Part shown: positions 14,140 to 57,940 of the stretch, one piece after another
Numbering within the stretch: the first letter of the stretch is position 1
Layout: the number at the start of each line of letters is the position of its first letter
From: Acidobacteriota bacterium
GTDB lineage: Bacteria > Zixibacteria > MSB-5A5 > GN15 > FEB-12
Direction of reading: 5' to 3'
Assembly: GCA_035529075.1 (NCBI GenBank)
Contig: DATKXK010000005.1
Span: 68,981 to 132,980, forward strand
DNA: 64,000 bases
The notes under the pieces: model-generated
What the model saw: only the letters and a program-made list of their open reading frames with translations
What the model was told of the DNA's origin: nothing
The model's database searches: none
Program-made: the position numbers and the translations under genes

Positions 14140-14163
14140 GGAGACTGAGATGCCTCAGTCTCC
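14140..14163 (-). terminator. Perfect 10-bp stem / 4-nt loop hairpin between convergent genes; probable terminator of the RRM gene
   Basis: ggagactgag-atgc-ctcagtctcc. On the minus strand it is followed by TTTGTGCATATT. It lies 50 nt after the rbp stop and 89 nt after the stop of 11733-14051. Confidence 0.55.
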
Positions 14164-14213
14164 TTCGCAATCAAGCGGCTGCCGTAATCGACAGCAGTGG
14201 ATGCGGATACTCT

Positions 14214-14519
14214 TTACCAGTTCCGACGGCGATTGCTGCCGTAACCACCGCCGCGACCGCCGCGGCTGCCTCCCTCGGTTCGTGGGCGCGCCTCATTGAT
14301 GTTCAGCGTGCGTCCATTCAGTTCCTGGCCGTTCAGGCCGTTCATCGCAGCGGTAGCCGCGCTCTGGTCGGACATCTCAACGAAGGCGAACCCTCTTGAC
14401 TCCCCGGTGTACTTGTCCTTGATAATGTTGACGCTCGAGATCTCTCCAAAGGCCTCAAACGCCTGGCGTAACTGCTCTTCTGTCGTGTCGAACGACAGGT
14501 TACCTACGTAGATGTTCAT
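14214..14519 (-). CDS. RRM-type RNA-binding protein with Gly/Arg-rich tail
   Basis: RNP2 IYVGNL and RNP1 RGFAFVEM; C-terminal SRGGRGGGYGSNRRRNW; 101 aa. Confidence 0.93.
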   Translation of the reverse strand: MNIYVGNLSFDTTEEQLRQAFEAFGEISSVNIIKDKYTGESRGFAFVEMSDQSAATAAMNGLNGQELNGRTLNINEARPRTEGGSRGGRGGGYGSNRRRNW

Positions 14520-14701
14520 TCTACACTCCGGTTTTGTTTATCCCTACCTGGAACATCATCCCGCAGGGATCGCGTTCGTCGAGATAAACCTGTTAATGCG
14601 CACTATTGCGCGGCGGTCCCGAGATTCAGCTTTTTGGGGAGATTTGACAGGAATAACAAAGCCTCTACAAAAGCAAATACGGAAACCAATTGTGAACACT
14701 T

Positions 14702-14730
14702 AATATATCGGCCTAAACGGCAAAAGTCCA
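14702..14730 (-). promoter_or_regulatory. Candidate sigma70-like promoter for the RRM gene (would give a ~175-nt leader)
   Basis: Minus strand reads TGGACT-17 nt-TATATT. Motif match only, and promoter consensus for this lineage is unknown. Confidence 0.25.
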
Positions 14731-14885
14731 CACTTCCTGTGAACCAATTTCCCCCCGGCCAAGTTCCGGCCTGCCTGCTTTTTCCGGCCCACCCGGCCGC
14801 TGCGCGCTGGTCCGGGATGGACCGGGCGGCCTGCCGATGGCGGGTTATAACGTTGCCCAGCAGTGAGTTATGGCGACCGCACCGT

Positions 14886-36431: not shown

Positions 36432-36686
36432 TTACTTCAGCAGCACCATCTTCTTCGTCTGGACAAAATCTCCCGCCTCGAGCCGGTAAAGGTAGACGCC
36501 GCTGGCGACATGGCTCGCGTCCCACGCAACGGTGTGAACGCCCGCCTCGAGCCGTCCGTCGACAAGGGTCGCTACCTGCTGCCCGAGCGTGTTGTAGACC
36601 CGTAACCTGACCTCGCTCGCAACGGGAAGGCCGAACGAAACGTTGGTGGTCGGGTTGAACGGGTTGGGGTGGTTCTGTTCCAGCGC
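36432..36686 (-). other. T9SS-type (Por secretion) C-terminal sorting domain of the metalloprotease
   Basis: 84-aa tail ALEQNHPNPFNPTTNVSFGLP...VYNTLGQQVATLVDG...ASGVYLYRLEAGDFVQTKKMVLLK matches the canonical type A CTD pattern. Confidence 0.8.
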
Positions 36687-43800: not shown

Positions 43801-44149
43801 GACCGGCCTGGAGGCCGCCGGCCTTGATCTGGTCGGAACGGAACTGGTGACCCTGGCCGCGTGCGAAACGGGCCTGGGCGAACTGGTGGATGGAGAGGGC
43901 GTCTTCGGTCTGCGCCGGGCTTTCCAGCGTGCCGGGGCGCAGACTATCGTGATGAGCCTGTGGAAAGTCCCCGATCAGGAAACAGCCGAATTGATGGACG
44001 GTTTCTACCGACGGTGGTGCGGCGGGGCATCAAAGCTGGATGCGCTCCGCGAGTCAGCTCTTGACGTCCTTAACCGGTCACGGACCGAACGAGGACGCAG
44101 TCATCCGTTGCTCTGGGGCGGATTTATCCTGGCCGGCAACCCGTACTGA
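40841..44149 (+). CDS. Exported TPR-repeat / CHAT-domain (caspase-fold) protease
   Basis: N-terminal signal-like MAMKIIPSLLLSAVAWLCVGDLPTAQE. About 10 TPR_12-type units (LNNLGxxYxxQGRYxEAEPLxxRAL). CHAT His/Cys dyad in LHLATHGFF and LAACETGLG. Confidence 0.9.
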   Translation: MAMKIIPSLLLSAVAWLCVGDLPTAQESSDGNLKAAEAGRLLVRADSLKENRQLDSALVVYQSAVAQAREAGAENDSTVVQCLDGLASCYYKLSEYERCDSLYRQACSIRVVVFGPSSLEVARSLFDVGEVEAVLGRYEESVSLLNQSLELQELHLGPSHIELEPCLRELGNALSMLGRLPEAETALKRAIAIVEQTRGPDDVAVVSNLNYLGNLYVKQSRFVEAEPLFKRAITLVEKQLGRDHPKLSTVRFYLADLYMSQHRDNEAEPLLKQALAVQERTYGPEDDQVAPYLASLAVVYWRQGRFEEAVPHMKRAQRIFESVYGPDHPVVASVLNNLGTILIGQGNLAEAERSFERALEIWSKVAHDVARRITTLHNLAVVYFMQDKYDQAEDLWAQVLAHRTELLGADHPEVGMVRLSLGRLFEEQGRYEDAEREFGQARTIFAEQWGPGSLGVSACLHGLSDVYAATGRYAQAEEFTADALSLESKELRTGHPSLNRGLHLMAVIHGSLGEYESSRANMCELLDARHRFIAHVFSYASEEQKLRYVDQQPLVDEVMLSLALIDGSEETRSAALEMLVKGKGVIIDAMSAENAIISCKPGSELGQTAEQYSFLCKMISTLAMSGRESMVSQQTADRLKTLSQARDSIEAELSLSCLEFKDELDRGNFSLQNVLEALPPGSVYLDYARFRPVDFSKVGSYQQKLGSSRYLAFTLDHDGHSTLHDLGDANQIDSLVRSCRRLIYNAGAELHSPLADVAEERLREVTDRLYERLFLPLVEELGGRESLFVSTDGLLTLLPFEILSCPDRSFLIENYRICYLSSGRDILRFVEGPVLAGEAAVFADPDFDNAGVSAANVAEVTQFGSDSVSGTQWYAARAGDCPAVGFDRLARSRSEAASIVGILRQAGKVRVGEYYGTEALEDVLKSMAAPPRVLHLATHGFFCPMSDTSESLVAGNPLLRCGLAFAGANRAGFPAGDNAPGAEDGILTGLEAAGLDLVGTELVTLAACETGLGELVDGEGVFGLRRAFQRAGAQTIVMSLWKVPDQETAELMDGFYRRWCGGASKLDALRESALDVLNRSRTERGRSHPLLWGGFILAGNPY

Positions 44150-44559: not shown

Positions 44560-46860
44560 CTACGGAATTCTGCTGCCTTTCGCAGCAGGCGGCACAAGTG
44601 ATCGCCACGCCGGAAATTCGTCATGGGCGCTGTTGTTGGTCAACTTCCGCCGGTTAGTGCCGTCCACGTTCATTATGTAGATTTCCCCGTCGCCGTCCTG
44701 CCACGATGCAAATACGATCTGCTTGCCGTCGGCAGACCAATCCGGGCAGTTCTCGCCGGCATAAGTGGTCGACAGTTTCTGCAGGCCGCTGCCGTCGGCA
44801 TTGATGATATAGATCCCCCGGAAACCTGCATGATCGGAACCAAAGACAATACGGGTGCCATCCGGCGACCAGTCCGGTTCGAAGCAGACGATATCCATCA
44901 ACTTATGCTCATCGCTGCCATCGGCATCCATTATGAAGGTGCCTTCATTGTCGTTGATGCGGGAGAAGACAATCTGACTACCGTCTGGTGACCATGCGGG
45001 AAAATCCTCGGAGCTGGAAGGGGTATCGGTCAGACGCTGCAGATTGGAGCCGTCTGCATGAATGACATAAATCTCGCCCTGGCCGTCGCGCCATGATGCG
45101 AACACTATGTGCACGCCATCGGGCGACCACTGAGGCCAGAAATCCATAGCGGTATGGGATGTCAGTTGTTGCACGCTGCTGCCGTCGGCATTCATGACGT
45201 AGATATCGGGGTTCCCGCCTCGGGTCGACACGAAGGCAATCCGTGAACCGTCGGGCGACCAGCTCGGCCCGGCGTCGTAGGCCGGATCGTCCGTCAGACG
45301 GCGTACGTGGCTGCCGTCGATCTTCATGAGGTAGATGTCCCCTGCACCGTCCCGTTCTGACGTGAAGGCAATCGTTGAGTCAACTGCGACCGGGCACGGC
45401 GGCAGCGGCTCATAGGTGATAAACAGATACTTGATCATCCGCGTCAGGTCCGAGATATCGACCACGCCGTCGGGCTCTGCCTCCGGGCCGATGTCGGCCT
45501 CGGCCAGGCAACAGATCGGTTGGCGAGAGATGAACAGGAAATCAATGAGGTTGGTCAGATCGCTGACATCGACTGTCTGATCGCTGTATTCGCACTCGCC
45601 CAGTAGCATGACATTGCCTATCGTGCCCTCACAGCAGCAGGCATCGCCGACATTATCGCTGTCGCCGTCCTCCTGAAGCGGGTTGTATACGAAGGGGCAG
45701 TTGTCGACGTCGGCACACAGACCGTCCCCGTCGACGTCGTTGTACGGATCCAGCGGGCAGTCGTCGCAGTCGTTGCCGATCCCATCACCGTCTGTATCCA
45801 CCTGGGCCGGGTTGTAAAGTACAGAACAGTTGTCAACCGGGCACGTGTTCTCGGCGTGACCGGGATCGCCGTAACCGTCGAGATCACCATCCGTACAGGA
45901 TCCGACCACAAAACCCTCGTTGGCATCGCTGGCCCCGGCTCCCGTCTGATAGGCACCGGCCACTACGAAGATCGTGTCTCCGATGACTGCCGCGTTGGTT
46001 CCGTGGCGCGGCGTGAGCATGGGCGTCAGCGGCTCCCAGGTATCGGTGCCGGGATCATACAACTCTACTTCCTCGTAGATGTCCGGAATCTCCCCGCCAA
46101 ACGTATACAGCTTTCCGCCAAGGGCCGCCGTCGAAAACGCGCTGCGCGGCGTCAGCATGTCTGCCAGTGTGTACCAGGTATCGCTGGCCGGCGAGTATGC
46201 TTCAGTCACCGGGACCAGCTCGAGAGACTCTCCCCAGTAGCCGATTCTCCCGCCCACTACGTAGATCAGGGAATCGATTACCGCTACTCCCGGGTGGTGA
46301 CGGGCCGTAGGCATGCTCGTGCCCGGAGACCAGCTATCCATCTGCGGATCATACACCTCGACCGAAGCCAGATCATCACCGTAGGTGTTGTTGCCGCCGA
46401 ATACGTAGATAAGACCATCGTAGGCCACAGCGCTGTGTTCACCCCGAGCCGTGGCCAGGGGGGCTCGAGGCGCCCAGCTATCGGTCGATGGCTCATAAGC
46501 CCAGACGGTGCTCGTAGCGATCCACGGCAGGCCGGCATTGCTGTAGCCACCGATCGCGTAAAGTACCCCGTCCACCACGGCCGTGGCACAGTGATGGCGG
46601 GCCTCGGGCAGCAGGGCCGCTGTCGACCAGGTATTGGCGGCTGGATCATACACATAGACACTGCCACTCACGACCAGGCTGGGGGTATACCCGCCCACAA
46701 CGTAGATGCGCCCGTCGAGCACGGCCGGCAGAACCTCCTGTCTGGCTTCCGGCAGCTCAGGACGTTCGAACCAGTAACCGGGCCCCTGGCCATAGGCAAA
46801 CCCGGCTAAGACATTCAACGCTATCAGGATGACGAGACAGACACGGGAACGGCGTTTCAT
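44560..46860 (-). CDS. Secreted mosaic protein: 6 Kelch repeats + TSP3-type Ca-binding repeats + dockerin-like pair + TolB-like (PD40) beta-propeller
   Basis: Signal peptide MKRRSRVCLVILIALNVLAGFAYG (ATG at 46860 preferred over 46917). Six units of PxARxxxxxAVxDGxIYVxGG. DTDGDGIGNDCDDCPLDPYNDVDGDGLCADVDNCP. DVSDLTNLIDFLF / DISDLTRMIKYLF. Repeated IAFxSxRDGxxDIYVMNADGSxxxxLT. Confidence 0.85.
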   Translation of the reverse strand: MKRRSRVCLVILIALNVLAGFAYGQGPGYWFERPELPEARQEVLPAVLDGRIYVVGGYTPSLVVSGSVYVYDPAANTWSTAALLPEARHHCATAVVDGVLYAIGGYSNAGLPWIATSTVWAYEPSTDSWAPRAPLATARGEHSAVAYDGLIYVFGGNNTYGDDLASVEVYDPQMDSWSPGTSMPTARHHPGVAVIDSLIYVVGGRIGYWGESLELVPVTEAYSPASDTWYTLADMLTPRSAFSTAALGGKLYTFGGEIPDIYEEVELYDPGTDTWEPLTPMLTPRHGTNAAVIGDTIFVVAGAYQTGAGASDANEGFVVGSCTDGDLDGYGDPGHAENTCPVDNCSVLYNPAQVDTDGDGIGNDCDDCPLDPYNDVDGDGLCADVDNCPFVYNPLQEDGDSDNVGDACCCEGTIGNVMLLGECEYSDQTVDVSDLTNLIDFLFISRQPICCLAEADIGPEAEPDGVVDISDLTRMIKYLFITYEPLPPCPVAVDSTIAFTSERDGAGDIYLMKIDGSHVRRLTDDPAYDAGPSWSPDGSRIAFVSTRGGNPDIYVMNADGSSVQQLTSHTAMDFWPQWSPDGVHIVFASWRDGQGEIYVIHADGSNLQRLTDTPSSSEDFPAWSPDGSQIVFSRINDNEGTFIMDADGSDEHKLMDIVCFEPDWSPDGTRIVFGSDHAGFRGIYIINADGSGLQKLSTTYAGENCPDWSADGKQIVFASWQDGDGEIYIMNVDGTNRRKLTNNSAHDEFPAWRSLVPPAAKGSRIP

Positions 46861-47087
46861 GACAATATCTCTTGAGTTAAAGGTCAAACCAGACGACCTC
46901 GCAAAGGACGACGGCAAAACTGGTATTTAATAGACGAATACCAACCGACATTGTTCAGCTATTCCAGCTGCAGCGTGCCTGTCCTGTAACTGCCGCTGCC
47001 TGCCCTAAAATGCTCCTTTTAGCCTTACTCTCTTACGAGCAGGATGAACTTCCCGGGCCCTTCTCTGCGCCCATCAGTTACTGCACT

Positions 47088-47249: not shown

Positions 47250-47415
47250 GATCGGCACTTTCGGGCCGGATGGTTGCAGAGATGTGCCGTGACAGGCCGG
47301 ACTTCGCCTGAGGACTTTCGGGTTCGCCGGGGGCGCATCAAGTGGAAGACGGCACAGCCGGAGCCGCAAGCAGGCTTTCAAACTGCGGGGTCATCCTTTC
47401 GACAAAGCCGTCCGG
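47088..47415. repeat. Direct repeat copy B (~325 bp): truncated CHAT 3' end + spacer + genuine apbE 3' end
   Basis: See copy A. Identical block structure, shifted by 3100 bp. Confidence 0.92.
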
Positions 47416-48414
47416 AGTTCTCACAACGAGTAACGCCGCCAGACCTTTGCCGAGCGCCAGCGCATAGCCGTCCGCCGGGCCCAGGATATTGATCGCCGTC
47501 GCCATCGCATCGGCGTACCAGCAGGAATCATGGATCACCGTCACCGAGGCCAGGCGGTGCCTTATCGGCTGTCCTGTCCTGGGATCGATGAGGTGTGAAT
47601 AGCGGACGCCGCCTGTCTCGAAGTAGTTTCGATAGTCTCCGGACGTTGCCATGGCGCAATTGACAAGAGACGCGACTTTCTGCACACCCGAATCCCCGTC
47701 GGGAGTCTCTATGCCGATCTGCCACACCTGATCCCTGTCGTTGCGACCCCGCGCTTTCATCTCCCCGCCGATCTCGACGAGATAGTCGGACAGGCCTGCC
47801 GAGTCAAGGTACCGGGCGATTTCGTCAACGCCGTAGCCCTTGGCGATTGCCGCCAGATCACAGTAGACCCCCGCGTTGTCCTTTTTCAAGGCAGGCGGAT
47901 CCAGCCGGACGGCGATCCTGGCGTACCCGGTGCGCGCCATGGCCCGGGTGATTTCTTCGGGTGTCGGTAGCCTGCGATCGGTCGTCGGGGGACCGAATCC
48001 CCAGAGGTTCACCAGCGGGCCAACCGTAATATCAAACGTACCACCCGTTTCCCGACTTACCCCCAGAGACTGTTCGATGATGCGTGCCGTGGCGGCCGAC
48101 ACGAGGAACCAGTCGGTTTTCTTCCGGTAGTTGAACCGCGAAATCTCCGAACTCTTCAGGTAGCAGGACATCTGAGCGTTGACGGCCTGCAACAGGCTGT
48201 CGATGCCCCGCCTGGCCAGTTCGATCTGCTCATGCGCAAGGTCGGCTGCGTGGCTGATTTTGACACTGTATACGGTCCCCATGGTTTCGCCGCGGATGAC
48301 AACCGGTCCGGCAGGGGCCGGGTTGTCCGAGCAGCCGGCAAGAAGCCCGGCGGCAACCAGCCATCCGGTCAGCCGCCGCCGCGCCCGGTCGGGATTCATC
48401 GCTCTGAACTTCAT
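47338..48414 (-). CDS. apbE: FAD:protein FMN transferase (flavin transferase ApbE), lipoprotein
   Basis: Lipobox LLAGC. GTFDITVGPLVNLWGFG, DLAAIAKGYGVD, AMATSGDYRNYF, YSHLIDPRTGQP. Confidence 0.92.
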   Translation of the reverse strand: MKFRAMNPDRARRRLTGWLVAAGLLAGCSDNPAPAGPVVIRGETMGTVYSVKISHAADLAHEQIELARRGIDSLLQAVNAQMSCYLKSSEISRFNYRKKTDWFLVSAATARIIEQSLGVSRETGGTFDITVGPLVNLWGFGPPTTDRRLPTPEEITRAMARTGYARIAVRLDPPALKKDNAGVYCDLAAIAKGYGVDEIARYLDSAGLSDYLVEIGGEMKARGRNDRDQVWQIGIETPDGDSGVQKVASLVNCAMATSGDYRNYFETGGVRYSHLIDPRTGQPIRHRLASVTVIHDSCWYADAMATAINILGPADGYALALGKGLAALLVVRTPDGFVERMTPQFESLLAAPAVPSST

Positions 48415-48548
48415 TATATCATTATAGTGGATCCTCTTCGGCCAGGCCAGTCGGCAGTGCCCGACATTCCGTTTTTCTTGAGCCGGGTAGGTCAGTCCCG
48501 GTGAGCCGGGCGGCCGTGATGACTGCCGGAGCTTGTGAAAAATATCTC

Positions 48549-48577
48549 TTGCGGCCGGATCATGATATTTTTATACT
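48549..48577 (+). promoter_or_regulatory. Candidate promoter of the cytochrome/Rnf operon (would give a ~175-nt structured leader)
   Basis: TTGCGG-17 nt-TATACT. Downstream lies the hairpin cggtgcc-cgtc-ggcaccg at ~48589-48606. Motif match only. Confidence 0.3.
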
Positions 48578-48753
48578 TTACGGGTGTCCGGTGCCCGTCG
48601 GCACCGCGCAGAATAAACCCTGCCGAGGGAGCAGGTCAGAGCGCTTGCTGAAAGTCGGTCGCATGAGTACCTGGTCGCCGGTCCGGTAGGTTTGAGTCAT
48701 GGGGACGCGAGGTACCGCCCGGTCTTGCTCGACCGTAGAAAAGAGGATGTAAC

Positions 48754-49227
48754 ATGCCGGAGAAGAAGAAAGATCAAGCGGACAGTTGGGAGGGCATGTT
48801 CTGGAAACCGCACAAGTATAATGAGCGGATCAACCTGAAATCCGGTTCGTATCTCCGTACCTTCTGCCCTCGCTGCGACGAAGAACTGACTGAAGGTAAC
48901 GTGATCCGGCTTGAGGTGATTAACCTCAACGATGAATCGGGGTGGATTGAGCTGAGCACGTACCTGAACGTTTTTGAGCGGAAGACCGATATCAAGCTGC
49001 CTGAGGATCAAGAAGTCAAGGATCTCCGTTGCCGTCACTGTCACCGTTCATTGGTCGTGGAGGGCCGGCGCTGTGGAACCTGCAATTCCCACGCGGCCGG
49101 CATTGTGGTCGGCGTCTCCAACACCAAGGTGCCTTTCCTGATTTGCACGCGCATAGGTTGTCACTGGCACGCTATTCTGCCCGATGACGAAGACCAGATA
49201 ATTCTCGATGACAGCCGTGAATGGTAA
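48754..49227 (+). CDS. Cytoplasmic 8-Cys (double zinc-ribbon-like) protein of unknown function, first gene of the Rnf-type operon
   Basis: 157 aa with no signal peptide. Cys pairs CPRC, CRHC, CGTC, CTRIGC. Its stop lies 1 nt before the cytochrome start. Confidence 0.6.
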   Translation: MPEKKKDQADSWEGMFWKPHKYNERINLKSGSYLRTFCPRCDEELTEGNVIRLEVINLNDESGWIELSTYLNVFERKTDIKLPEDQEVKDLRCRHCHRSLVVEGRRCGTCNSHAAGIVVGVSNTKVPFLICTRIGCHWHAILPDDEDQIILDDSREW

Positions 49228-49228
49228 T

Positions 49229-49840
49229 ATGCAGGCGCACAGAAAACCCACTTTCCTGATAATTCTTACCGTCGTGGCCGCCGTTGCGGCCGTGGGCGGC
49301 TACTGGGTGGGAGAGGAATCCTCGGACACCAGCCGATTCTTCCTGAGTAGCTCCGGCGGCGACGTGGTGTTCGAGCACGGGGCGCATACGGAAATGGCCG
49401 CGGGGTGTGAAAGCTGCCACCATGATCTCCTGCTGGCCGATTCACGGCAGCCGTGCAGCACTTGTCACGGCGACGACGTTGCGGCGGAGGATTTCGATCA
49501 TGATGACCTCAAGACCATCTCGGCGCACAGTTGCGAGACATGCCACGAGGTCAACGACCAGGCCGAGGCAGGGTCATGTCGCAGTTGCCACCCGTCGGCT
49601 CAGGACGCGGAACCGCAAACGGTGGCCTGCGGGCAGTGCCACGACGGCTACTCGGCCGATTTGATGACCCACGACGAGATGCAGGAAATCGAGGGGCACG
49701 CGTGCGAAGGGTGCCACGTCATTGAGGCGGTCAGTACCGTGTACCACCGTCAGTGTGAGGGCTGTCACCTTGCCGAAAGCCCCGAGAAGTTTGCCACCGA
49801 AACCGGAGAAAGCCAGTGTCAATCGTGTCACCTGAGGTGA
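49229..49840 (+). CDS. Membrane-anchored/exported octahaem c-type cytochrome
   Basis: N-terminal MQAHRKPTFLIILTVVAAVAAVGGYWV. Eight CxxCH motifs in ~150 aa: CESCH, CSTCH, CETCH, CRSCH, CGQCH, CEGCH, CEGCH, CQSCH. ATG at 49229 is preferred to the track start at 49208, which overlaps the previous gene. Confidence 0.88.
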   Translation: MQAHRKPTFLIILTVVAAVAAVGGYWVGEESSDTSRFFLSSSGGDVVFEHGAHTEMAAGCESCHHDLLLADSRQPCSTCHGDDVAAEDFDHDDLKTISAHSCETCHEVNDQAEAGSCRSCHPSAQDAEPQTVACGQCHDGYSADLMTHDEMQEIEGHACEGCHVIEAVSTVYHRQCEGCHLAESPEKFATETGESQCQSCHLR

Positions 49841-49856
49841 ATTTCAGCTTGCGGGT

Positions 49857-51167
49857 TTGCCCATGAATTCCATACGGACACTTTTCAGGACCCTTGGCCA
49901 CATCGGGGATTGCGCCTCACATGAGGAGAAGATTTCCGCAATCGCCGACCCGCCGTACGTCTGCATCCCGCTGGAGTATCCGGGCCAGATCCTGTACAAG
50001 CCCCTGGTGCAGGCGGGTGATACGGTGCGCAGGAACCAGATCATCGGCCGGTCCGGGCAGGGTAATTGTGTCCACGCGTCGGTAAGCGGAACAGTGAAGG
50101 AGATCAGGCCCGTCTGGACTGCGCGAAGCTACAACGTGCCCTCGGTCGTGATTGAGCGAAACGGCGGCGCCCCGCTGTCGGTGGGCGAAGTCTTTGAGCA
50201 GTACGGCGTGCGGTTTGCCTCGGCGTCCCGGATACAGAAAATGAAGGCCCTGGGGGTTGTCTCGCCGTGGACTCTGCCGGGCAAGTTCCACCGTGAAGAG
50301 GAGGTGGAGGAGTTCCCCGAGGTCAGACAGATCATTATCAAGGGAAAAAACGAAGAACCCAGTATTTTCACGTTCGAACTGCTGCTTGAGCAGGAATCTG
50401 AGAAAGTGACTCGGGGGATTCAGCAACTGACCAGCATCGCCCCCAATGCTCTGATCTGGCTGACCGTGCCGAGGCGCCTGGCTGCCTGGGCGCGTGAGAC
50501 TTTCGGCGACTCCGTCAAAGTTGCGCCCCTTGGGGACGGTTACAAGGACCGTCTGGAGCGGCTGCTTGTCCCGCGCCTGACCGGGATCACGATAGCCAAC
50601 ACCGCCCCGTACCGGCAGGAAGGGATTGCCGTCATATCGGTCGAGTACCTCCTGGCCATGGTCGACGCGCTTGAAGGCCGCAGCCCGTTCACGCACAAGC
50701 ACCTGACTGTCGCCGGGCATAACGTCTCCAGACCCGTTACGGTCAAGTTCCCTATAGGCACACCCATCCGAACACTCCTGGAGAGCCAGCAGCTTCACGA
50801 CAAGTCGTTCGCACGCCTGCTGGTCGGGGGGCCGATGAAGGGAATCGCGCAGTTTAGTGACGAAACTCCCCTCACCAAGTCCTGTCACGGTCTTTACGTG
50901 ATATCAGCGGATCAATTGCCGCTGGAGGTGAACCTTACGTGCATAAACTGCGGCCGGTGTACGCGGGCGTGCCCGCTTAACCTGCAGGTGCACCTGATCG
51001 GCCGCTACGTCGAATATAACCTGCTGCTTGAGGCCAGGGGATTTCACCCGGAAGCCTGCAATGAGTGCGGGTTGTGCGCCTATGTCTGTCCGGCTCACAG
51101 GCCGCTGGTACAACTTATCACTATGTGTAATCAGTACGATGAGCACGCCGATGGTCAGAACGTATGA
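49857..51167 (+). CDS. rnfC: RnfC-like subunit retaining two [4Fe-4S] motifs but lacking the Gly-rich NADH/FMN-binding motifs
   Basis: RnfC_N pattern (VCIPLEYPGQILYKPLVQAGDTVRRNQIIG..VHASVSGTVKEI), LLVGGPMKG, CINCGRCTRACP and CNECGLCAYVCP. Where RsxC/RnfC has G(L/V)GGAGFPT and INxAECEPY, this protein has VVSPWTLPGKF and IKGKNEEPS. Confidence 0.82.
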   Translation: MPMNSIRTLFRTLGHIGDCASHEEKISAIADPPYVCIPLEYPGQILYKPLVQAGDTVRRNQIIGRSGQGNCVHASVSGTVKEIRPVWTARSYNVPSVVIERNGGAPLSVGEVFEQYGVRFASASRIQKMKALGVVSPWTLPGKFHREEEVEEFPEVRQIIIKGKNEEPSIFTFELLLEQESEKVTRGIQQLTSIAPNALIWLTVPRRLAAWARETFGDSVKVAPLGDGYKDRLERLLVPRLTGITIANTAPYRQEGIAVISVEYLLAMVDALEGRSPFTHKHLTVAGHNVSRPVTVKFPIGTPIRTLLESQQLHDKSFARLLVGGPMKGIAQFSDETPLTKSCHGLYVISADQLPLEVNLTCINCGRCTRACPLNLQVHLIGRYVEYNLLLEARGFHPEACNECGLCAYVCPAHRPLVQLITMCNQYDEHADGQNV

Positions 51168-52125
51168 GAAACTGAACGTAGCTTCCAGCCCTCACTGGCG
51201 GGATGGAAGCGCCCTGGATTTGACTTACAAGCTGTGGCTGCTGGCCCTGGCGCCGGCCATGATCGTGAGCCTGCTGATGTTCGGTTGGCAGGCGTTACGG
51301 GTTCTCGGCCTGGCCGTGGCCTGTTCCGTATTCCTGGATGCGCTCGTCAACCGGATAAAGCCCTCCAAGGACTTTACGACCAATTGGAGCAGCGTTACGT
51401 TCGGCGTGATCCTCGCCCTGATGATGCCGTATGACGCCGCCTGGTGGCTGATTCTGGTGGGTTGCCTGATCATGATTGTGGTGGGCAAAAAGCTTTTCGG
51501 CGGCGTGGGAGCGTACCCCGTGCACCCGGTCCTGCTCAGTCTGGCCATGCTGCATGTATCCTGGCCGCACCGCTTCGACTTCACCGCTTCCATGGTTTCA
51601 CTGGATCTCGGTGTCAAGATGGTCGAGCCGATGCGTCTCGTCAAAACGCTGGGCGCGGGCGCCGAGGCTGCATATCGCTGGCAGGATCTCCTGCTGGGCA
51701 AACAGGTGGCCGGCATCGGTAGCGGGCTCGTCCTGTACCTGCTTATAGGCGGCCTGCTCCTGATTCTTTTCCGCCAGATTCCGTGGCACATCCCGGTCGC
51801 CTTTATTGTCGGTAACCTGGTGATGGGGGAGGTTCTGCACCTGGCGGATCCGGTTCAGTTCGCCACACCGCTCTTCTACCTTCTGTCCGGCGGCACTGTT
51901 TTCGCCGCTTTTTTCCTGGCGACGGAGTACACGACTTCGCCCGTGAACCCGGTTCCGATGTTGTTATACGGGTTCCTGGGTGGGGCTTTGCTGATAGTAA
52001 TTCGCGCGTTTTCGAACTACACTGACGGCGTGGTGTTTACGATCCTGCTGATCAACCTGTGCAATCCGCTTCTCGATCGCATCACGCCCAGGGTATACGG
52101 CATAGAGGCGGCTCAGCATGCGTGA
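51139..52125 (+). CDS. rnfD: RnfD/NqrB-family membrane subunit (divergent at the FMN-attachment site)
   Basis: VASSPHW near the N-terminus, KKLFGGVGAYPVHPVLLSLAML, YLLSGGTVFAAFFLATE, NYTDGVVFTILLINLCNPLLD. ATG at 51139 is chosen; the track start at 51028 lies deep inside rnfC. Confidence 0.86.
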   Translation: MSTPMVRTYEKLNVASSPHWRDGSALDLTYKLWLLALAPAMIVSLLMFGWQALRVLGLAVACSVFLDALVNRIKPSKDFTTNWSSVTFGVILALMMPYDAAWWLILVGCLIMIVVGKKLFGGVGAYPVHPVLLSLAMLHVSWPHRFDFTASMVSLDLGVKMVEPMRLVKTLGAGAEAAYRWQDLLLGKQVAGIGSGLVLYLLIGGLLLILFRQIPWHIPVAFIVGNLVMGEVLHLADPVQFATPLFYLLSGGTVFAAFFLATEYTTSPVNPVPMLLYGFLGGALLIVIRAFSNYTDGVVFTILLINLCNPLLDRITPRVYGIEAAQHA

Positions 52126-52717
52126 AGTAATCAGGCTAGTCGTGGTGCTCACCGTCATCTGCGGTGTCTCGGCGGGTGCTCTGACGCTTGTGCGGCAGTC
52201 ACTGGGTTCTCGCATTGAGCAGCAGAGCGATTTTTATGTTCGCGGCCCGGCGCTGGAGCGCCTGTTCGGCCAACCATCGGCGGAGCTGCTTGACAAGAAG
52301 GTCAGCTTTACCTCCGACGGGCGCACGTATCCGGTTTTTTATACGCGTGACGGCGAGCAGATCACAGGGCTGGCCGTCGAGGCACCCGGCCCGGGAGGGT
52401 ACGGCGGCGATGTCGTCGTCATGATTGGTGTGGACCTGCGTGCCGGGCAGATGGTAGGTATGGAGATAATCCAGCATAATGAGACGCCCGGCGTCGGCTC
52501 GCAGGTGGAAAGGCCGGCCTTCCGCAAACAGTGGAGCGGCCTGTCCGTCTCCGAGCCCGTGCAGCTGACTGCGCAAGGGGGCAAGATTGACGCCATCAGC
52601 GGTGCCACGTACTCATCGAAGGCGGTGATCAACGGAACGAACGCCATTGTCGAATTGCTGGGCCGTCACCGTGACGAGATTATGGCTTCAATACGGACGA
52701 AAGAGGGTCAATCGTAG
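52118..52717 (+). CDS. rnfG: RnfG subunit (periplasmic FMN_bind domain)
   Basis: N-terminal anchor VVVLTVICGVSAGAL. HNETPGVG. Flavinylation motif DAISGATYSSKAV (SGAT at 52598-52609). Confidence 0.9.
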   Translation: MREVIRLVVVLTVICGVSAGALTLVRQSLGSRIEQQSDFYVRGPALERLFGQPSAELLDKKVSFTSDGRTYPVFYTRDGEQITGLAVEAPGPGGYGGDVVVMIGVDLRAGQMVGMEIIQHNETPGVGSQVERPAFRKQWSGLSVSEPVQLTAQGGKIDAISGATYSSKAVINGTNAIVELLGRHRDEIMASIRTKEGQS

Positions 52718-52746
52718 ACTGCCCTGACGGGGTGTGAGAAGCGAAT

Positions 52747-53358
52747 ATGAGTTTACGGAAGGTACTGTTTCACGGGTTCTGGAAAGACCTGCCGCCGTTT
52801 CGTCTGGTCCTGGGTCTGTGCCCGTCTCTGGCCGTGACTTCATCGGCCGAGAACGGTCTGGGTATGGGACTGGCGGCGACGTTCGTGCTCGTCTTTTCCA
52901 ATCTGTTTATCTCCGTGCTGCGCAAAATGATCCCGGACAAGGTACGCATTGCCAGTTACATCGTGGTTATCGCCACCCTGACTGTTCTCGTGGAGATGGC
53001 GATGAAGGCGTACTTCTTCCCGCTTTCGCAGCAGTTGGGAATTTACATTCCCCTGATCGTCGTTAACTGCATTATTCTCGGCCGGGCGGAAGCGTACGCC
53101 TCGAAGAACCCGCCTCACCTCTCGATTGTTGATGGCATCAGCATCGGGTTGGGTTTCACGATTTCGCTGACGGTGGTCGGATCGATCCGTGAGATTCTGG
53201 GTGCCGGGCAGTGGTTTGGCACGTACGTTCTCTGGGACAGCTACGAGCCGTTTGAGTTCATGATCAAGGCCCCGGGTGCCTTTATCTGCCTGGGCGTGCT
53301 GTTGGGTCTGATGAACGCATACAGCCGCATGCGCGGTGAAACCTTCATACAGTCGTAG
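52747..53358 (+). CDS. rnfE: RnfE subunit
   Basis: LVLGLCPSLAVT, GLGMGLAATFVL, LGIYIPLIVVNCIILGRAEAYA. Confidence 0.9.
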   Translation: MSLRKVLFHGFWKDLPPFRLVLGLCPSLAVTSSAENGLGMGLAATFVLVFSNLFISVLRKMIPDKVRIASYIVVIATLTVLVEMAMKAYFFPLSQQLGIYIPLIVVNCIILGRAEAYASKNPPHLSIVDGISIGLGFTISLTVVGSIREILGAGQWFGTYVLWDSYEPFEFMIKAPGAFICLGVLLGLMNAYSRMRGETFIQS

Positions 53359-53367
53359 GAGGTACTG

Positions 53368-53943
53368 ATGGACCTGTTGTTGCTCGCGATCAGTGCGATC
53401 TTTGTGAACAATATCCTCCTGGCCCAGTACCTCGGCAACTGCCCCTTCTGCGGCGTCTCCAAGAAGCTGAACACGTCCATCGGGATGGGGGTGGCGGTGA
53501 TCTTTGTGGTGGCGCTGGCCTCGGTGTTCACGTGGCTGGTTTACTACTACGTTTTGAAACCGTACGATATGGAGTTCATCCAAACCCTCGTCTTCATTCT
53601 GATTATCGCGTCGCTCGTTCAGTTTGTGGAGATCTTTCTTAAGAAGCAGAGTAAGGCGCTGTACAACGCGTTGGGGATCTACCTGCCGCTGATCACGACG
53701 AACTGCGCCGTCATGGGCATCGCACTGCTTAATATCAAGCACGAATTCAACTTCATCGAGATGGTGATATTCTCAGTTGCCAGTTCCGCAGGTTTTGCCC
53801 TGGCGATCATACTGTTCGCCGGGCTGCGGGAGCGGCTGCTGGTCTCACCGGTCCCTCGGGCCATGCAGGGGACAGCCGTGGCGCTTCTGACGGCCGGTAT
53901 CATGTCGCTGGCGTTCTTGGGCTTTTACGGTATGGTTCAGTGA
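53368..53943 (+). CDS. rnfA: RnfA subunit
   Basis: NNILLAQYLGNCPFCGVS, LGIYLPLITTNCAVMG, GFALAIILFAGLRERL. Confidence 0.9.
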   Translation: MDLLLLAISAIFVNNILLAQYLGNCPFCGVSKKLNTSIGMGVAVIFVVALASVFTWLVYYYVLKPYDMEFIQTLVFILIIASLVQFVEIFLKKQSKALYNALGIYLPLITTNCAVMGIALLNIKHEFNFIEMVIFSVASSAGFALAIILFAGLRERLLVSPVPRAMQGTAVALLTAGIMSLAFLGFYGMVQ

Positions 53944-53958
53944 GATAGAAAGTAGGGT

Positions 53959-56058
53959 ATGGGCATGCTGGAGTCAGTTGTACTCCTTGCGGGAATTGGA
54001 TTTGTAGCGGCGATTGGTCTGGGCATTGCCGGGATAATCTTCTACGTCAAGGAAGATCCTCGCATAAAGGGCGTTCAGAACATCCTCCCCGGCGCCAACT
54101 GCGGAGGTTGCGGGTTTGCGGGTTGCGCGGCTTGCGCCGAGGCCATTGTCAGGGGGGAAGCTGAGGCAAACGCCTGCGTCGTGGGCCAGACGGAGGTCGC
54201 CACGGAAGTCGCGGATTATCTTGGTCTGTCTCCGGTCGACTCGGAACCGCAGGTGGCCAATCCCGACTGCCAGGGCGGGCTCCGCGCCTCCAGAAAGTAC
54301 GACTACCTGGGCTTCGACGACTGCCGGGCCGCCATGTTGTACTACCACGGGCCGGTGGCGTGTGAGCATGGCTGCATGGGCTTCGGAACCTGCATCAAGG
54401 CGTGCAAGTTCAACGCCATTATGATGGGCGAGAACAACCTGCCACGGTTCAATCCGGAACTGTGCGTGGGCTGCGGCCAGTGCGTGGCGGCCTGCCCCAA
54501 GGGCATCATCTCACTCATCTCCGCCAAGGCCAAGATCCTGCACTGGAATCAGTACACCGAGTGCCTGTCTCCCTGCCGACAGAAGTGCCCGGCTCAGGTC
54601 AACATCCCGAAGTATATCCAGCATATCAGACGCGGTGAATACGCTCAGGCCCTGCTGACAATCAAGGAAAGCAACCCTATGCCGTTAAGCATCGGGCGGG
54701 TCTGCCCCGAACCGTGCGCCCTGGCCTGCCGGCGTACCATCAATGACGAACCCGTGGCTATCAACTACCTCAAGCGGTTTGTCGCCGACTGGGAGATGCA
54801 CTCCGGCCGTCGTCTCCGCATTCCCGTGGCGGCCGGCACGGGCAAGAAGGTGGCCGTGATCGGGGGCGGCCCGGGCGGTCTCTCGGCCGCGTTCTATCTC
54901 AAGCGCCTCGGCCATGAGGTGACAATCTTCGAAAAAAAGCCCCAACTCGGAGGCATGTTGCGTTACGGCATTCCCGAGTACCGGCTGCCCAAGAAGATTC
55001 TCGACTGGGAGATCGAAGGTATCCTCCAGTTGGGAATCACCGCCACTGCCAACGTGGAGTTCGGCAAGGACTTCACGATTGATTTCCTGCGCGCCGAGGG
55101 GTATGACGCCGTTTTCATCGCGGTCGGGGCCTGGAACGAGTCTGAACTGAAGGTCGAGGGCCGCGATCTGAAGGGTGTGGTCGGCGGCATCGGGTTTCTC
55201 GAGCGGTTCCACACCGGTGAAGAGGTTGAGATCGGCAATCACGTGGTTGTGATAGGCGGTGGCAATACGGCTATTGACGCTGCGCGCAGTTCCCTGCGGC
55301 TGGGTGCACAGACCGTCACCATCGTGTATCGCCGGTCGAGGGACGAAATGCCCGCCAATCCTGCCGAGATCATTGCCGCTGAAGAAGAGAACATTCAGTT
55401 CCAGTTCCTGAGTGCTCCCAACCGTGTGCTTGGTGAGGACGGCCGGGTAGCGGGCCTGGAAGTCCTGAAAATGCGCCTGGGCGAGCCCGATCCCAGCGGC
55501 CGGCGAAGGCCCGTCCCGATTGAGGGGTCAGAAGAAGTTGTCCAGTGCGATATGATCGTCGAGGCCGTCGGCCAGTACCCGGATCTGGACTGCCTCAAGC
55601 AAGCGGGATCGCCCAGTCTCCAGGTCACCAAGTGGAACACGATTGACGCGCAGGAAGCGACCCTGCAGACGGACGTTCCCTACATCTTTACCGGCGGTGA
55701 CTGCTTCACCGGTCCGGGTCTCGTGGTGGAGGCCATAGGCGCCGGGCGCTATGCCGCGCGTTCCATCCACTACTACATGATGGATGACGAGATTCGGCCG
55801 ATTCGGGATCGTCAGCGCGAGATCATTCCGGACTCGCTGCACAAGTCAATTATCGGTGTTGCAGCCTTGCCCCGCGTCCATGAACCGATAGTCACACTTG
55901 AAGACCGGCTGGGAACATTCAAGGAGGTGGAGGGGACCATCGACGAGGAGGATGCCCGGTACGAAGCCACGCGGTGCCTGAACTGCGGCATCTTTTGTTA
56001 CGATCACGACCAGGAGGTCGAGCGACTGGCCCAACTGGAGGCGGCCGAAACGACTTAG
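53959..56058 (+). CDS. rnfB: RnfB fused to a GltD-like (glutamate synthase small-subunit-type) NAD(P)H/FAD oxidoreductase module
   Basis: Residues 1-190 are the TM anchor, LPGANCGGCGFAGCAACAEAI (RnfB-type cluster), CEHGCMGFGTCIKAC and CVGCGQCVAACP. Residues ~195-640 carry SPCRQKCPAQVNIPKYI...GRVCPEPCALACRR, KKVAVIGGGPGGLSAAFYL..EKKPQLGGMLRYGIPEYRLPK, VVVIGGGNTAIDAARS and IFTGGDC. 699 aa, against ~190-330 aa for ordinary RnfB. Confidence 0.88.
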   Translation: MGMLESVVLLAGIGFVAAIGLGIAGIIFYVKEDPRIKGVQNILPGANCGGCGFAGCAACAEAIVRGEAEANACVVGQTEVATEVADYLGLSPVDSEPQVANPDCQGGLRASRKYDYLGFDDCRAAMLYYHGPVACEHGCMGFGTCIKACKFNAIMMGENNLPRFNPELCVGCGQCVAACPKGIISLISAKAKILHWNQYTECLSPCRQKCPAQVNIPKYIQHIRRGEYAQALLTIKESNPMPLSIGRVCPEPCALACRRTINDEPVAINYLKRFVADWEMHSGRRLRIPVAAGTGKKVAVIGGGPGGLSAAFYLKRLGHEVTIFEKKPQLGGMLRYGIPEYRLPKKILDWEIEGILQLGITATANVEFGKDFTIDFLRAEGYDAVFIAVGAWNESELKVEGRDLKGVVGGIGFLERFHTGEEVEIGNHVVVIGGGNTAIDAARSSLRLGAQTVTIVYRRSRDEMPANPAEIIAAEEENIQFQFLSAPNRVLGEDGRVAGLEVLKMRLGEPDPSGRRRPVPIEGSEEVVQCDMIVEAVGQYPDLDCLKQAGSPSLQVTKWNTIDAQEATLQTDVPYIFTGGDCFTGPGLVVEAIGAGRYAARSIHYYMMDDEIRPIRDRQREIIPDSLHKSIIGVAALPRVHEPIVTLEDRLGTFKEVEGTIDEEDARYEATRCLNCGIFCYDHDQEVERLAQLEAAETT

Positions 56059-56099
56059 CGGTGCGACCGGCTCCCCGCCTGACCTGATTTCACTGACGG

Positions 56100-56133
56100 C
56101 GGCCGGTCCTTTCGGGCTGGCCGTTTGTGTGTT
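56100..56133 (+). terminator. Intrinsic terminator closing the Rnf-type operon
   Basis: cggccggtcc-tttc-gggctggccg (10-bp stem including 2 G-U pairs) followed by TTTGTGTGTT, 42 nt after the rnfB stop. Confidence 0.6.
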
Positions 56134-56149
56134 ATATCTCCCAAAATAG

Positions 56150-56245: not shown

Positions 56246-57940
56246 ATGGATACGAATCTACCCGGGATCATAGTTACGGGCGCGTCCGGTTTCATCGGGC
56301 GGCACTTTCTGGAGGCGGTGGCCGGTAAATTCCGTCTCTTCTGCCTGGCGCGCCGTTCGCAAAAGGAAGCGGGTATTCCCAGGGATGACAACATCCGCTG
56401 GACCCAGGTCGACATCGCCAAATGGGACACTCTCAGAGAGGTCGTGCAATGCGTGAAGACCAACGGGGGTGCGGATTTCGTCCTGCACCTGGCCGGCTAC
56501 TATGACTTCAGCAACGCCGACAACCCGGAATACGAACGGACCAACGTCAACGGCACGCGCAACGTCCTGAAGCTGGCAAAACAGATCGGCACGCGCCGTT
56601 TCATCTTCGCCAGTTCCCTGGCGGCCTGTACGTTTCCGCGTGACGGCGGGGTGGTCAACGAAGAGAGTGCGCCAGACGCCACTTTTCCGTATGCGTCCAG
56701 CAAACGGCTGGGCGAAGAGATGATGCAGGAGTACTCCGAGTGGTTTCCGTGCACGACCGTCCGTTTGGCCGCAATCTACAGCGACTGGTGCGAGTATCCT
56801 CCGGTATACGTGTTTCTCGGTACCTGGCTGTCCGGCCGCTGGAATTCGCGCATCCTCGGCGGCCGGGGAATGTCCGCCGTGACGTATCTTCACATCCAGG
56901 ACCTGATCAGGTTCTTTCTAAAGATAATCGACCAGACCGATCGCTTGCCGCGGATGTGCACCCTGGTGGCAAGCCCGAACGGATTCACGACTCATCACGA
57001 GCTTTTCAAAACGGCCACGCGGTATTTCTACGGCCGGGACATCCGGCCGATTCGCATGCCTAAGGTCCTGGCCACGCCGGGCATGGTCTTGCGCCATGCC
57101 ATAGGGAAGCTCTTCGGCAGGCCGCCGTTCGAGCGCCTGTGGATGGTGGCGTACATTGACAAGAAACTGAACGTCGACGCCTCAGGAACGCACGCCGACC
57201 TCGGCTGGCAGCCGACCGCCCGGCACGGCATTCTCCGGCGCCTGCTGTTCCTGATGGAAAACATGAAGAATCACCCCGACGGCTGGCATTTGCGGAACGA
57301 AGCCGTGCTGCGGCGGGTGACCGAGCGGCCGAATCTCACCATTTACGAACTGCTTATCGAGTCCCGCGAGGCGCTCATTGATGAAATGCTCAAGTTCATC
57401 CTGGCCCCCGCCAACGCCGGGCGGCTCAACCGCTACCAGAGGATGGATAAGGACCTGCTCAAGTGGTACGTCACCCTCGTGTACCAGCTGGTGGCTACGG
57501 TCGTGCGAACCCGCGACCGGACGCTGATGCGCAATTACGCCGAGGTCATAGCGTATCGCCGGTTCGTGGAAGGATTCGAGGTTCGCGAGGTTTGTGACTT
57601 TCTCATGTCTATAGGTGACATGATGCGTGAGGCACTGGAGCCACGGTCCGAGCTCAGGGACATGCCGCAACGGGTGTACGACCACATCACCATGACTTTC
57701 CAATTGGCGGTGGACGAGATCGAGGACTCTTACGAGTTCCTGGCTGCCCAGACACCTGAATACCTGCAGCGGCTCAGGGAAGTGCCGTTACCGACACACA
57801 GCGGCGATCTCGAGCGCATTGTCCATCAACTGGAGGACATCTGCCAGGACATGTTCGAGGACCGGCTGAGCACGGAGGCCCGCAAGCTCCGGGGCGCGCC
57901 CCTCTCCCGCAGTGACACCCCGCATTATCATGATCTGTAG
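56246..57940 (+). CDS. NAD-dependent epimerase/dehydratase (extended SDR) fused to a ~230-aa helical C-terminal domain of unknown function
   Basis: IIVTGASGFIGRHF (GxxGxxG), YASSK (YxxxK). Residues ~330-564 are helical and not SDR-like. Confidence 0.8.
   Translation: MDTNLPGIIVTGASGFIGRHFLEAVAGKFRLFCLARRSQKEAGIPRDDNIRWTQVDIAKWDTLREVVQCVKTNGGADFVLHLAGYYDFSNADNPEYERTNVNGTRNVLKLAKQIGTRRFIFASSLAACTFPRDGGVVNEESAPDATFPYASSKRLGEEMMQEYSEWFPCTTVRLAAIYSDWCEYPPVYVFLGTWLSGRWNSRILGGRGMSAVTYLHIQDLIRFFLKIIDQTDRLPRMCTLVASPNGFTTHHELFKTATRYFYGRDIRPIRMPKVLATPGMVLRHAIGKLFGRPPFERLWMVAYIDKKLNVDASGTHADLGWQPTARHGILRRLLFLMENMKNHPDGWHLRNEAVLRRVTERPNLTIYELLIESREALIDEMLKFILAPANAGRLNRYQRMDKDLLKWYVTLVYQLVATVVRTRDRTLMRNYAEVIAYRRFVEGFEVREVCDFLMSIGDMMREALEPRSELRDMPQRVYDHITMTFQLAVDEIEDSYEFLAAQTPEYLQRLREVPLPTHSGDLERIVHQLEDICQDMFEDRLSTEARKLRGAPLSRSDTPHYHDL

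Follow-up and report, generated by a model that had tools for sequence, protein, structure and literature searches.

The window analysed here, a 64,000-nucleotide stretch of contig DATKXK010000005.1 (positions 68,981 to 132,980 of the forward strand; assembly GCA_035529075.1), contains an Rnf operon, very probably of the variant known as Rnf2 or Desulfobacula toluolica Tol2-type. The six Rnf subunits are encoded together in the order C-D-G-E-A-B (Pfam, NCBIfam and PDB matches) and all open reading frames (ORFs) of the operon are intact in the ORF map. The complex appears to represent a distinct subclade of the Rnf2 kind in a new host group, and it adds to the published description a clade-wide loss of the RnfD flavin site, a conserved gene for a Zn-ribbon protein and a wider taxonomic range. 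Judged from the cofactor sites of its subunits, it would most likely be an NAD(P)H:cytochrome c oxidoreductase that works reversibly and translocates ions.

Families were assigned with Pfam and NCBIfam profiles, applying the curated score cut-off of each model. A census of related loci was made by scanning one genome per species; this gave 80 loci, whose ORFs were called and whose products were classified with phmmer. The expected family was obtained for each Rnf subunit, in agreement with the original prediction (made from the DNA letters alone) that the membrane core is Rnf. The four departures from a textbook Rnf that it had listed were also borne out. RnfB carries a complete GltD-like module for flavin adenine dinucleotide (FAD) and NAD(P)H, with matches to PF14691 and PF07992 and a full-module alignment to StnC/NfnB structures. 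RnfC (here RnfC') keeps two 4Fe-4S motifs and is without the Gly-rich motifs for NADH and flavin mononucleotide (FMN), as seen in alignments to solved RnfC. RnfD (here RnfD') has Glu at the position of the flavinylated Thr, and this holds across the clade. Finally, an octahaem cytochrome facing the periplasm is co-encoded, its gene lying directly upstream of rnfC.

In the RnfB::GltD fusion, residues 1-195 comprise the RnfB membrane anchor and three Fe-S sites, and residues 197-685 form a NfnB/StnC-like module with two 4Fe-4S clusters and with FAD and NAD(P)H sites. The domains recognised are the RnfB FeS domain, a dicluster ferredoxin, Fer4_20 (PF14691) and Pyr_redox_2 (PF07992), and NF009410 scores above its cut-off (523 bits). 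RnfB of Acetobacterium woodii (9eri_B) aligns to residues 5-192, while residues ~199-683 align over the whole module with 9bov_A, 9n5u_A, 8oh5_C (StnC, E = 2e-120) and NfnB (4ylf_B/5jca_L). Both GxGxxG motifs, the YRR(S/T) motif and six cluster cysteines are common to the fusion module and to the StnC/NfnB-type structures; the form found in the fusion, YRRS, is that of enzymes named or published as NADPH-dependent. The closest relatives of solved structure are thus NADPH enzymes, and in StnC such a module feeds electrons from NADPH into a chain of Fe-S clusters without bifurcation (PMC10482914). The cluster cysteines of the fusion are 100% conserved in 142 sequences. A C-terminal Cx2Cx3C triad (C673, C676, C680) is 99% conserved in 142 homologues, and C104 and C122, which lie outside the standard cluster motifs, are invariant; together, the triad and C104/C122 could ligate one more Fe-S cluster. 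Full-length relatives of the fusion number at least in the thousands among the matches scored, a set limited to 8,000 candidates. Those that could be named belong to Zixibacteria (up to 80% identity), Krumholzibacteria, Thermoanaerobaculales, Gemmatimonadales, Marinimicrobia and Calditrichaceae, with further ones in cultured Desulforhopalus and Desulfopila.

RnfC' aligns end to end with the solved chains 7zc6_C, 9eri_C and 8ahx_C. TIGR01945 spans its full length (189 bits, under the cut-off of 246), and the Pfam scan gave RnfC_N and two ferredoxin-type 4Fe-4S motifs, no match to Complex1_51K (PF01512), and SLBB at 21.7 bits, below its cut-off of 27. Opposite GIVGMGGATFPTH of solved RnfC, RnfC' has GVVSPWTLPGKFH, and opposite NAAECEPYLT it has KGKNEEPSIF, the replacements at the GxGGAxFP and ECEPY sites being SPWTLPG and NEEPS. 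Both CxxCxxCxxxCP motifs, which bind the 4Fe-4S clusters, are intact. The Gly loop is absent from the RnfC next to the fusion in all related loci, and in the family alignment SPW and all eight cluster cysteines of both CxxCxxCxxxCP motifs are invariant. The C/D branch had been called 'degenerate'. This description does not hold, since the replacements are conserved (SPW in RnfC', EP(L/M)RL in RnfD') and the Fe-S ligands of RnfC' are invariant. A canonical second Rnf on a Krumholzibacteriia contig (L019) keeps GLGGASFPTHVK and NGAECEPYLT. On that contig the canonical Rnf (535-3500, minus strand), with a small RnfB and intact RnfC NADH/FMN motifs, and the variant operon (8752-16100, plus strand) lie about 6 kb apart; thus both Rnf types are found in one genome.

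RnfD' presents 'vkmvEpm' opposite 'vttaTpl' of 9eri_D and 7zc6_D, from A. woodii and Clostridium tetanomorphum. In A. woodii, T156 of RnfD holds the covalent FMN-D, which is located between FMN-G and riboflavin (PMC11889175). At the positions of N123 and D249, which bind riboflavin in A. woodii, RnfD' has His and Glu. Among RnfD proteins encoded next to the fusion the Thr is lost clade-wide, with the exception of one subgroup with a 4-haem cytochrome, which has Ser or Thr (SGLSPL). The residue found in its place is Glu in the window clade (EP(L/M)RL), Asp in Marinimicrobia and Lentisphaeria, and Tyr in Desulfobacteraceae-type loci. With the flavinylation site gone from RnfD' and the FMN/NADH site gone from RnfC', electrons could no longer return by the usual path to NAD+ in the cytoplasm.

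In sequence, the wiring from RnfB through RnfA/E to RnfG is intact. RnfA scores 256 bits with TIGR01943, above the cut-off, and RnfE is above the cut-offs of NF009070 and TIGR01948. All four ligands of the [2Fe-2S] cluster (AE1) are conserved in pairwise alignments of RnfA (C25/C113) with 9eri_A and of RnfE (C25/C108) with 7zc6_E. In A. woodii, ion pumping resides in this RnfA/E cluster and RnfD serves in electron transfer only (PMC11889175). The best NCBIfam model for RnfG is NF045876 (RnfG_DVU2794; E = 3e-51, 173.6 bits, under the curated cut-off of 205). Its flavinylation motif is intact (DAISGATYS, containing SGAT) and is kept in 80 of 81 sequences from related loci. The adjoining apbE encodes a lipoprotein, with LLAGC as a lipobox in its N-terminus; it matches NF007774 (E = 3e-86, 289.5 bits, under the curated cut-off of 498 bits), and such a gene was found in 10 of the 80 related loci.

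The cytochrome belongs to class III (c3; PF02085, E = 4e-10) and matches Hmc (2e84_A, E = 1e-12) and the nine-haem cytochrome 1duw_A in the PDB. It has one N-terminal hydrophobic helix as membrane anchor, eight CxxCH motifs and eight further histidines, which suggests bis-His haems. A multihaem ORF lies directly upstream of rnfC in 70 of 73 loci; the haem count is 8 in 51 loci, 6 in six, 4 in ten and 10 in two. One MAG (metagenome-assembled genome) has, in addition, a 377-amino-acid ORF with 13 CxxCH motifs upstream of the Zn-ribbon/cytochrome/rnf operon (L009:3373-4500).

No Pfam or NCBIfam family reaches its cut-off for the Zn-ribbon protein, which has no signal peptide and no membrane helix, and no fold match was found in the PDB for its AlphaFold2 model (mean predicted local distance difference test score 69.6). 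C38, C41, C93, C96, C107, C131, C136 and a C-terminal D-S-x-E-W are invariant. Homologues occur in about 50 related loci beside the cytochrome gene. The Zn-ribbon gene goes with Glu or Asp at the lost Thr position of RnfD and was found in no Tyr-, Ser- or Thr-type locus. In remoter Glu-type loci it is downstream of rnfB and not at the operon head (L054:16392, L056:16209, L061:16390). Some relatives are tandem domain duplications of about 280-295 amino acids with two profile matches (P0265, P0267, P0268 and others).

The same gene order was found in about 70 genomes, which represent at least eight phyla, so its recurrence is far beyond chance, and the altered interfaces are fixed traits of a large clade rather than signs of decay. 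The design occurs in Zixibacteria, Calditrichota, Krumholzibacteriota, Marinimicrobia, Latescibacteria, Lentisphaeria, Desulfocapsaceae and Geopsychrobacteraceae. The exact eight-gene order is present in the cultured Desulforhopalus sp. IMCC35007 (L001), Desulfopila aestuarii DSM 18488 (L044), Desulfofustis glycolicus DSM 9705 (L040) and Desulfopila sp. IMCC35008 (L022). RnfB is fused to GltD in 56 of the 58 loci with enough downstream sequence, and in one of the remaining two RnfB and GltD are encoded by separate genes that lie side by side. A tandem pair of large-RnfB operons was seen on one contig (L078/L080; about 1-6000 and about 9000-16400), the first without a cytochrome gene and the second with an 8-haem cytochrome; a gene for an RnfB-like polyferredoxin of about 430 amino acids lies between them. 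In Desulfofustis sp. PB-SRB1 (L074:10001-16300), rnfC, rnfD, rnfA and rnfB::gltD are broken into many short ORFs; either the operon has been pseudogenised or the long-read assembly contains frameshift errors.

The combination had been thought unrecognised, but it has been published as the 'D. toluolica Tol2-type' or 'Rnf2' complex, with an RnfB of about 700 amino acids containing NAD+-binding sites, an RnfC without the NADH/FMN domain and a gene for cytochrome c3 in the cluster, the remaining subunits being 'very similar' (PMC5109826; PMC11887813). Descriptions by the Rabus group go back to 2013 (Wöhlbrand 2013, as cited in PMC5109826). Rnf2 subunits were detected in the D. multivorans proteome (PMC5109826), and according to PMC11887813 Rnf2 is part of the Desulfobacteraceae core genome, its formation being abundant and constitutive. 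The Rnf2 authors likewise proposed electron flow to the cytochrome (PMC5109826; PMC11887813), with a different mode of action that 'awaits experimental verification' (PMC5109826). The original prediction had named a common, already characterised subtype with ordinary ferredoxin:NAD+ activity as what would speak against it; the architecture is indeed common and described, but not characterised with that activity. The Rnf2 papers are silent on the RnfD site, and no mention of the Zn-ribbon gene was found in PMC11887813. A term search in the text of a 2025 review of RNF and NQR (PMC12174285) gave no sign of the variant, the sole match to 'cytochrome' there being Methanosarcina acetivorans. Literature searches that combined RnfB with GltD and cytochrome, or RnfB with glutamate synthase and fused, returned nothing, as the relevant papers say 'large RnfB' and 'Rnf2'. 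For marine Desulfovibrionaceae, a cytochrome-rnf operon is reported in which an 'FAD-dependent oxidoreductase' stands where rnfB would be expected, read there as loss of rnfB (PMC11434368); judged from that description alone, this oxidoreductase is probably the RnfB::GltD fusion.

The best-supported reading of electron flow, to which about an even chance may be given, is the route of the original prediction and runs from NAD(P)H through the GltD module, RnfB, RnfA/E and RnfG-FMN to the cytochrome. The site of NAD(P)H (probably NADPH) oxidation would be the FAD in the NfnB/StnC-like module on RnfB, and single electrons would pass via the two 4Fe-4S clusters of the module and then the RnfB clusters to the membrane-buried [2Fe-2S] between RnfA and RnfE, where Na+/H+ translocation is coupled in A. 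woodii. They would exit to the periplasmic FMN attached to RnfG by ApbE and, with the RnfD'/RnfC' return path broken, would be handed to the octahaem c3-type cytochrome anchored in the membrane, which would pass them on to partners in the periplasm. The reverse direction, from cytochrome c to NAD(P)+ and driven by the ion gradient, would also be expected. In sequence, the NAD(P)H site lies on the RnfB side and not on RnfC'. Na+-NQR, the Na+-translocating NADH:quinone oxidoreductase, arose by an analogous swap of the input module (PMC12174285; PMC11889175). This route is supported by the co-inheritance, across related loci, of the fusion, the cytochrome, the loss of the RnfC loop and the loss of the RnfD Thr.

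Several observations weigh on the other side. The bis-His ligation suggested by the eight further histidines and the general behaviour of c3-type cytochromes point to low haem potentials, and the driving force from NAD(P)H may therefore be small and the reaction may run either way. The RnfB part retains its clusters, which makes ferredoxin input possible. Three loci (L067, L072, L076) have no cytochrome gene upstream. As judged by homology, NADPH rather than NADH is the probable substrate. Lastly, the invariant 4Fe-4S sites of RnfC' and its new, likewise invariant SPW speak against a dead end in the C/D branch and for continued electron transfer or partner binding there.

A bolder version of the cytochrome route may be entertained tentatively: the complex would be a quinone-independent, Na+/H+-translocating NADPH:cytochrome c class of at least eight phyla, with the Zn-ribbon protein and the Fe-S-bearing RnfC' as a new cytoplasmic module. 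Loss of the RnfD FMN would then divert electrons from RnfG-FMN to a multihaem cytochrome dedicated to the complex, and the Zn-ribbon/RnfC' module would be, for example, a second ferredoxin-type entry or a regulatory cap.

Alternatively, the complex could still be linked to reduced ferredoxin, docking on the clusters of RnfB or on exposed RnfC' clusters, and act as a ferredoxin:NAD(P)+ oxidoreductase whose sites have been relocated or, as suggested by the Rabus group, as a two-donor (ferredoxin plus NAD(P)H) cytochrome c reductase. The invariant Fe-S ligands of RnfC', the retained N-terminal clusters of RnfB and the three loci without a cytochrome gene are all in keeping with this. However, only residues 7-195 of the 333-residue A. 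woodii RnfB align; its C-terminal polyferredoxin part, which we take to be the part that docks ferredoxin, has no counterpart here, its place being taken by the GltD module. Moreover, the link from RnfG to RnfC' is doubtful without FMN-D, and the ORF map shows no ferredoxin gene in the operon. This reading is rather unlikely, although it deserves to be kept in view.

An NQR-like NAD(P)H:menaquinone oxidoreductase, in which RnfB::GltD would act as NqrF, RnfD' and RnfC' would provide a quinone site as NqrB and NqrA do, and the cytochrome would be a side exit, is improbable. In NQR, RnfB has likewise given way to a different input subunit, NqrF, and the RnfC homologue NqrA has lost its NADH function; in addition, RnfC' matches an NqrA model weakly (NF003761, E = 9e-11), and the riboflavin-ligand positions of RnfD' carry similar residues (H and E). 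But quinone reduction in NQR passes through covalently flavinylated NqrB, and RnfD' has lost the Thr that this would need. NqrA has also lost its redox cofactors, whereas RnfC' keeps both 4Fe-4S motifs, and the near-universal cytochrome gene suggests that the cytochrome is the main partner.

Even less can be said for electron bifurcation or confurcation, in which the NfnB-like FAD would split the electrons of NADPH between the path from RnfB to RnfA/E and a branch through the C-terminal Cx2Cx3C, possibly involving the RnfC' clusters. It would account for the closeness of the module to NfnB-type proteins, for the extra Cys triad and the unexplained C104 and C122, and for RnfC' clusters without an obvious partner. 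Yet the equally close StnC module is non-bifurcating, an NfnA-like partner is absent, and the RnfB and RnfC clusters of A. woodii are > 30 Å apart (PMC11889175); bifurcation is also thermodynamically unneeded if both electrons reach the same cytochrome. This is a highly improbable reading. A decaying or non-functional operon, to which the loss of canonical cofactor motifs in RnfC and RnfD might point, can be dismissed with near certainty and is ruled out by conservation: the ORFs are intact, the replacement motifs are conserved across phyla, gene order is kept in about 70 genomes, and Rnf2 proteins are abundant in Desulfobacteraceae proteomes (PMC5109826; PMC11887813).

If NAD(P)H is indeed coupled directly to a periplasmic cytochrome pool and to ion movement, the complex would be an unrecognised entry to, or exit from, anaerobic respiratory chains, comparable in function to complex I or NQR but independent of quinones. 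Metabolic reconstructions in which such loci are scored as 'Rnf, ferredoxin:NAD+' would then be wrong. Desulfobacteraceae, with Rnf2 in their core genome (PMC11887813), oxidise a large share of the organic carbon of marine sediments. The clade-wide loss of the RnfD flavin site makes a clean, testable prediction about the electron path, and cultured carriers of the exact operon exist.

The eight plus-strand genes (48754-56058) are separated by gaps or overlaps of no more than about 30 nucleotides in the ORF map, and the eight-gene operon that had been proposed, with apbE divergent from it at a distance of 339 bp, was found at these positions (Table 1). Of the hairpin and T-tract that had been placed at its end, the hairpin was recovered, with a GC-rich 12-bp stem (56098-56125); the T-tract in the TGTGTGTTAT that follows is only weak. 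Public gene calls on identical sequence differ only in later starts, giving 434 amino acids for RnfC (start at 49863), 324 for RnfD (start at 51151) and 697 for RnfB::GltD. Such start-codon differences shift the gaps quoted by a few nucleotides and leave the overall picture unaffected. A promoter scan, which is uninformative for an organism of the Fibrobacteres-Chlorobi-Bacteroidetes (FCB) type, gave no plus-strand sigma-70-like site upstream of the operon, and an Rfam scan over the whole window gave no match at all, hence no riboswitch or leader in the 339-bp intergenic region either. Downstream of rnfB::gltD is a gene (56246-57940, plus strand) for a 564-amino-acid protein resembling NAD-dependent epimerases/dehydratases, with a long C-terminal extension. 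It lies 3' of the terminator hairpin and is thus probably outside the operon. A gene of this kind is in the same place in related Zixibacteria contigs (L002:6970-8634, L003:4335-4880).

Table 1. Features of the variant Rnf locus, in window coordinates
Feature	Position	Strand	Evidence
apbE, lipoprotein FAD:protein FMN transferase	47338-48414	-	PF02424, E = 8e-86; lipobox
Divergent intergenic region, 339 bp, presumed promoter site	48415-48753	.	read from sequence
Zn-ribbon protein, 157 amino acids, cytoplasmic, orphan family	48754-49227	+	two Cys-rich metal sites
Membrane-anchored periplasmic octahaem cytochrome c, c3/Hmc/nine-haem family	49229-49840	+	eight CxxCH; PF02085
RnfC', RnfC fold, two 4Fe-4S motifs, without FMN/NADH loops	49857-51167	+	TIGR01945, PDB alignments
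RnfD', Glu in place of flavinylated Thr	51139-52125	+	PF03116, E = 1e-76
RnfG, membrane-anchored periplasmic FMN-binding subunit	52118-52717	+	PF04205, E = 6e-18
RnfE, pump-core membrane subunit	52747-53358	+	NF009070, TIGR01948
RnfA, pump-core membrane subunit	53368-53943	+	TIGR01943
RnfB::GltD fusion, 699 amino acids	53959-56058	+	PF04060, Fer4, PF14691, PF07992
Terminator-like GC-rich hairpin, 12 bp, weak T-rich tail	56098-56135	+	sequence

Elsewhere, the window encodes peptidases of families M32, S9, M16 and S58, a protein sorted by the type IX secretion system (T9SS), a TPR-CHAT protein and a GlcD-CCG fusion, a content that fits a proteolytic heterotroph of the FCB group. The T9SS C-terminal sorting domain is in a protein encoded at 36432-39308. 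The fusion (1041 amino acids; 20146-23271, minus strand) joins FAD_binding_4 (GlcD/LdhD-like) to a 4Fe-4S dicluster and two CCG (HdrD/GlpC-like) domains and is probably a membrane-associated or Fe-S-linked 2-hydroxyacid dehydrogenase. The TPR-CHAT (caspase-like) protein has 1102 amino acids (40841-44149, plus strand), and its gene adjoins that of a secreted 785-amino-acid protein (44560-46917, minus strand) with Kelch, Asp/Cys-rich and PD40 (TolB-like) propeller repeats. A protein labelled 'Acidobacteriota bacterium' by NCBI matches RnfC' at 100% identity; the nearest relatives, however, are Zixibacteria. As the closest homologues are from Zixibacteria and the window encodes a T9SS sorting-domain protein, the 'Acidobacteriota' label of the source MAG is doubtful.

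Among known systems, StnC, NfnB and GltD share the module composed of an NADPH site, FAD and two [4Fe-4S] clusters, but here it is fused to a membrane-anchored RnfB, and the operon encodes neither NfnA nor StnAB as a partner. Membership of the NfnAB/Stn transhydrogenases was rejected, since the module is present but an NfnA or HydBC-like gene is absent from both operon and window. Rnf of M. acetivorans (with MmcA) and of Desulfovibrio (with DhcA, 'CbcC-like') has, like the window operon, a multihaem cytochrome gene directly upstream of rnfC, and RnfG is closest to the NCBIfam model of the DVU2794 type. RnfB, C, D and G of M. acetivorans, however, are reported to have their known cofactor sites conserved, and MmcA and DhcA differ from the window cytochrome in haem number and cytochrome family; MmcA-type Rnf was rejected on the cofactor sites.

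Na+-NQR of Vibrio cholerae resembles the window complex in having a flavin-containing NAD(P)H dehydrogenase as the input on the RnfB side, an RnfC homologue that has lost its NADH function and a shared A/E/G/D core. It differs in that the input is the FNR-like NqrF (FAD, 2Fe-2S) and not a GltD/NfnB-like module, NqrA has no Fe-S clusters whereas RnfC' keeps them, NqrB keeps covalent FMN and RnfD' does not, and the acceptor in the window complex is probably a cytochrome rather than ubiquinone. The GltD-like input, the Fe-S clusters of RnfC' and the missing Thr of RnfD' led to rejection of Na+-NQR membership, and all Nqr models of NCBIfam were far below their cut-offs.

With the canonical Rnf of A. 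woodii (9eri), C. tetanomorphum (7zc6) and Azotobacter vinelandii (8ahx), the window complex has in common six homologous subunits, the [2Fe-2S] ligands of RnfA/E, the flavinylation motif of RnfG, the N-terminal anchor and clusters of RnfB and an RnfC fold with two 4Fe-4S. It departs from them in that RnfC' is without FMN/NADH loops and RnfD' without the flavinylation Thr, in the added cytochrome and Zn-ribbon protein, and in the replacement of the polyferredoxin end of RnfB by an NADPH/FAD module.

The closest fit is Rnf2, with which the window complex shares an RnfB of about 700 amino acids with a pyridine-nucleotide oxidoreductase module, an RnfC without the Complex1_51K/FMN domain, a cluster that opens with a c3-type cytochrome gene, and the gene order C-D-G-E-A-B. 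Compared with Desulfobacteraceae-type MAG loci, identity is about 30% for RnfC, 38% for RnfD and 35-54% for RnfB::GltD. Unlike these loci, the window clade has Glu rather than Tyr at the lost Thr, an 8-haem cytochrome and the extra conserved Zn-ribbon gene, and, whereas Rnf2 hosts are sulfate reducers, the host of the window operon is a Zixibacteria-like heterotroph.

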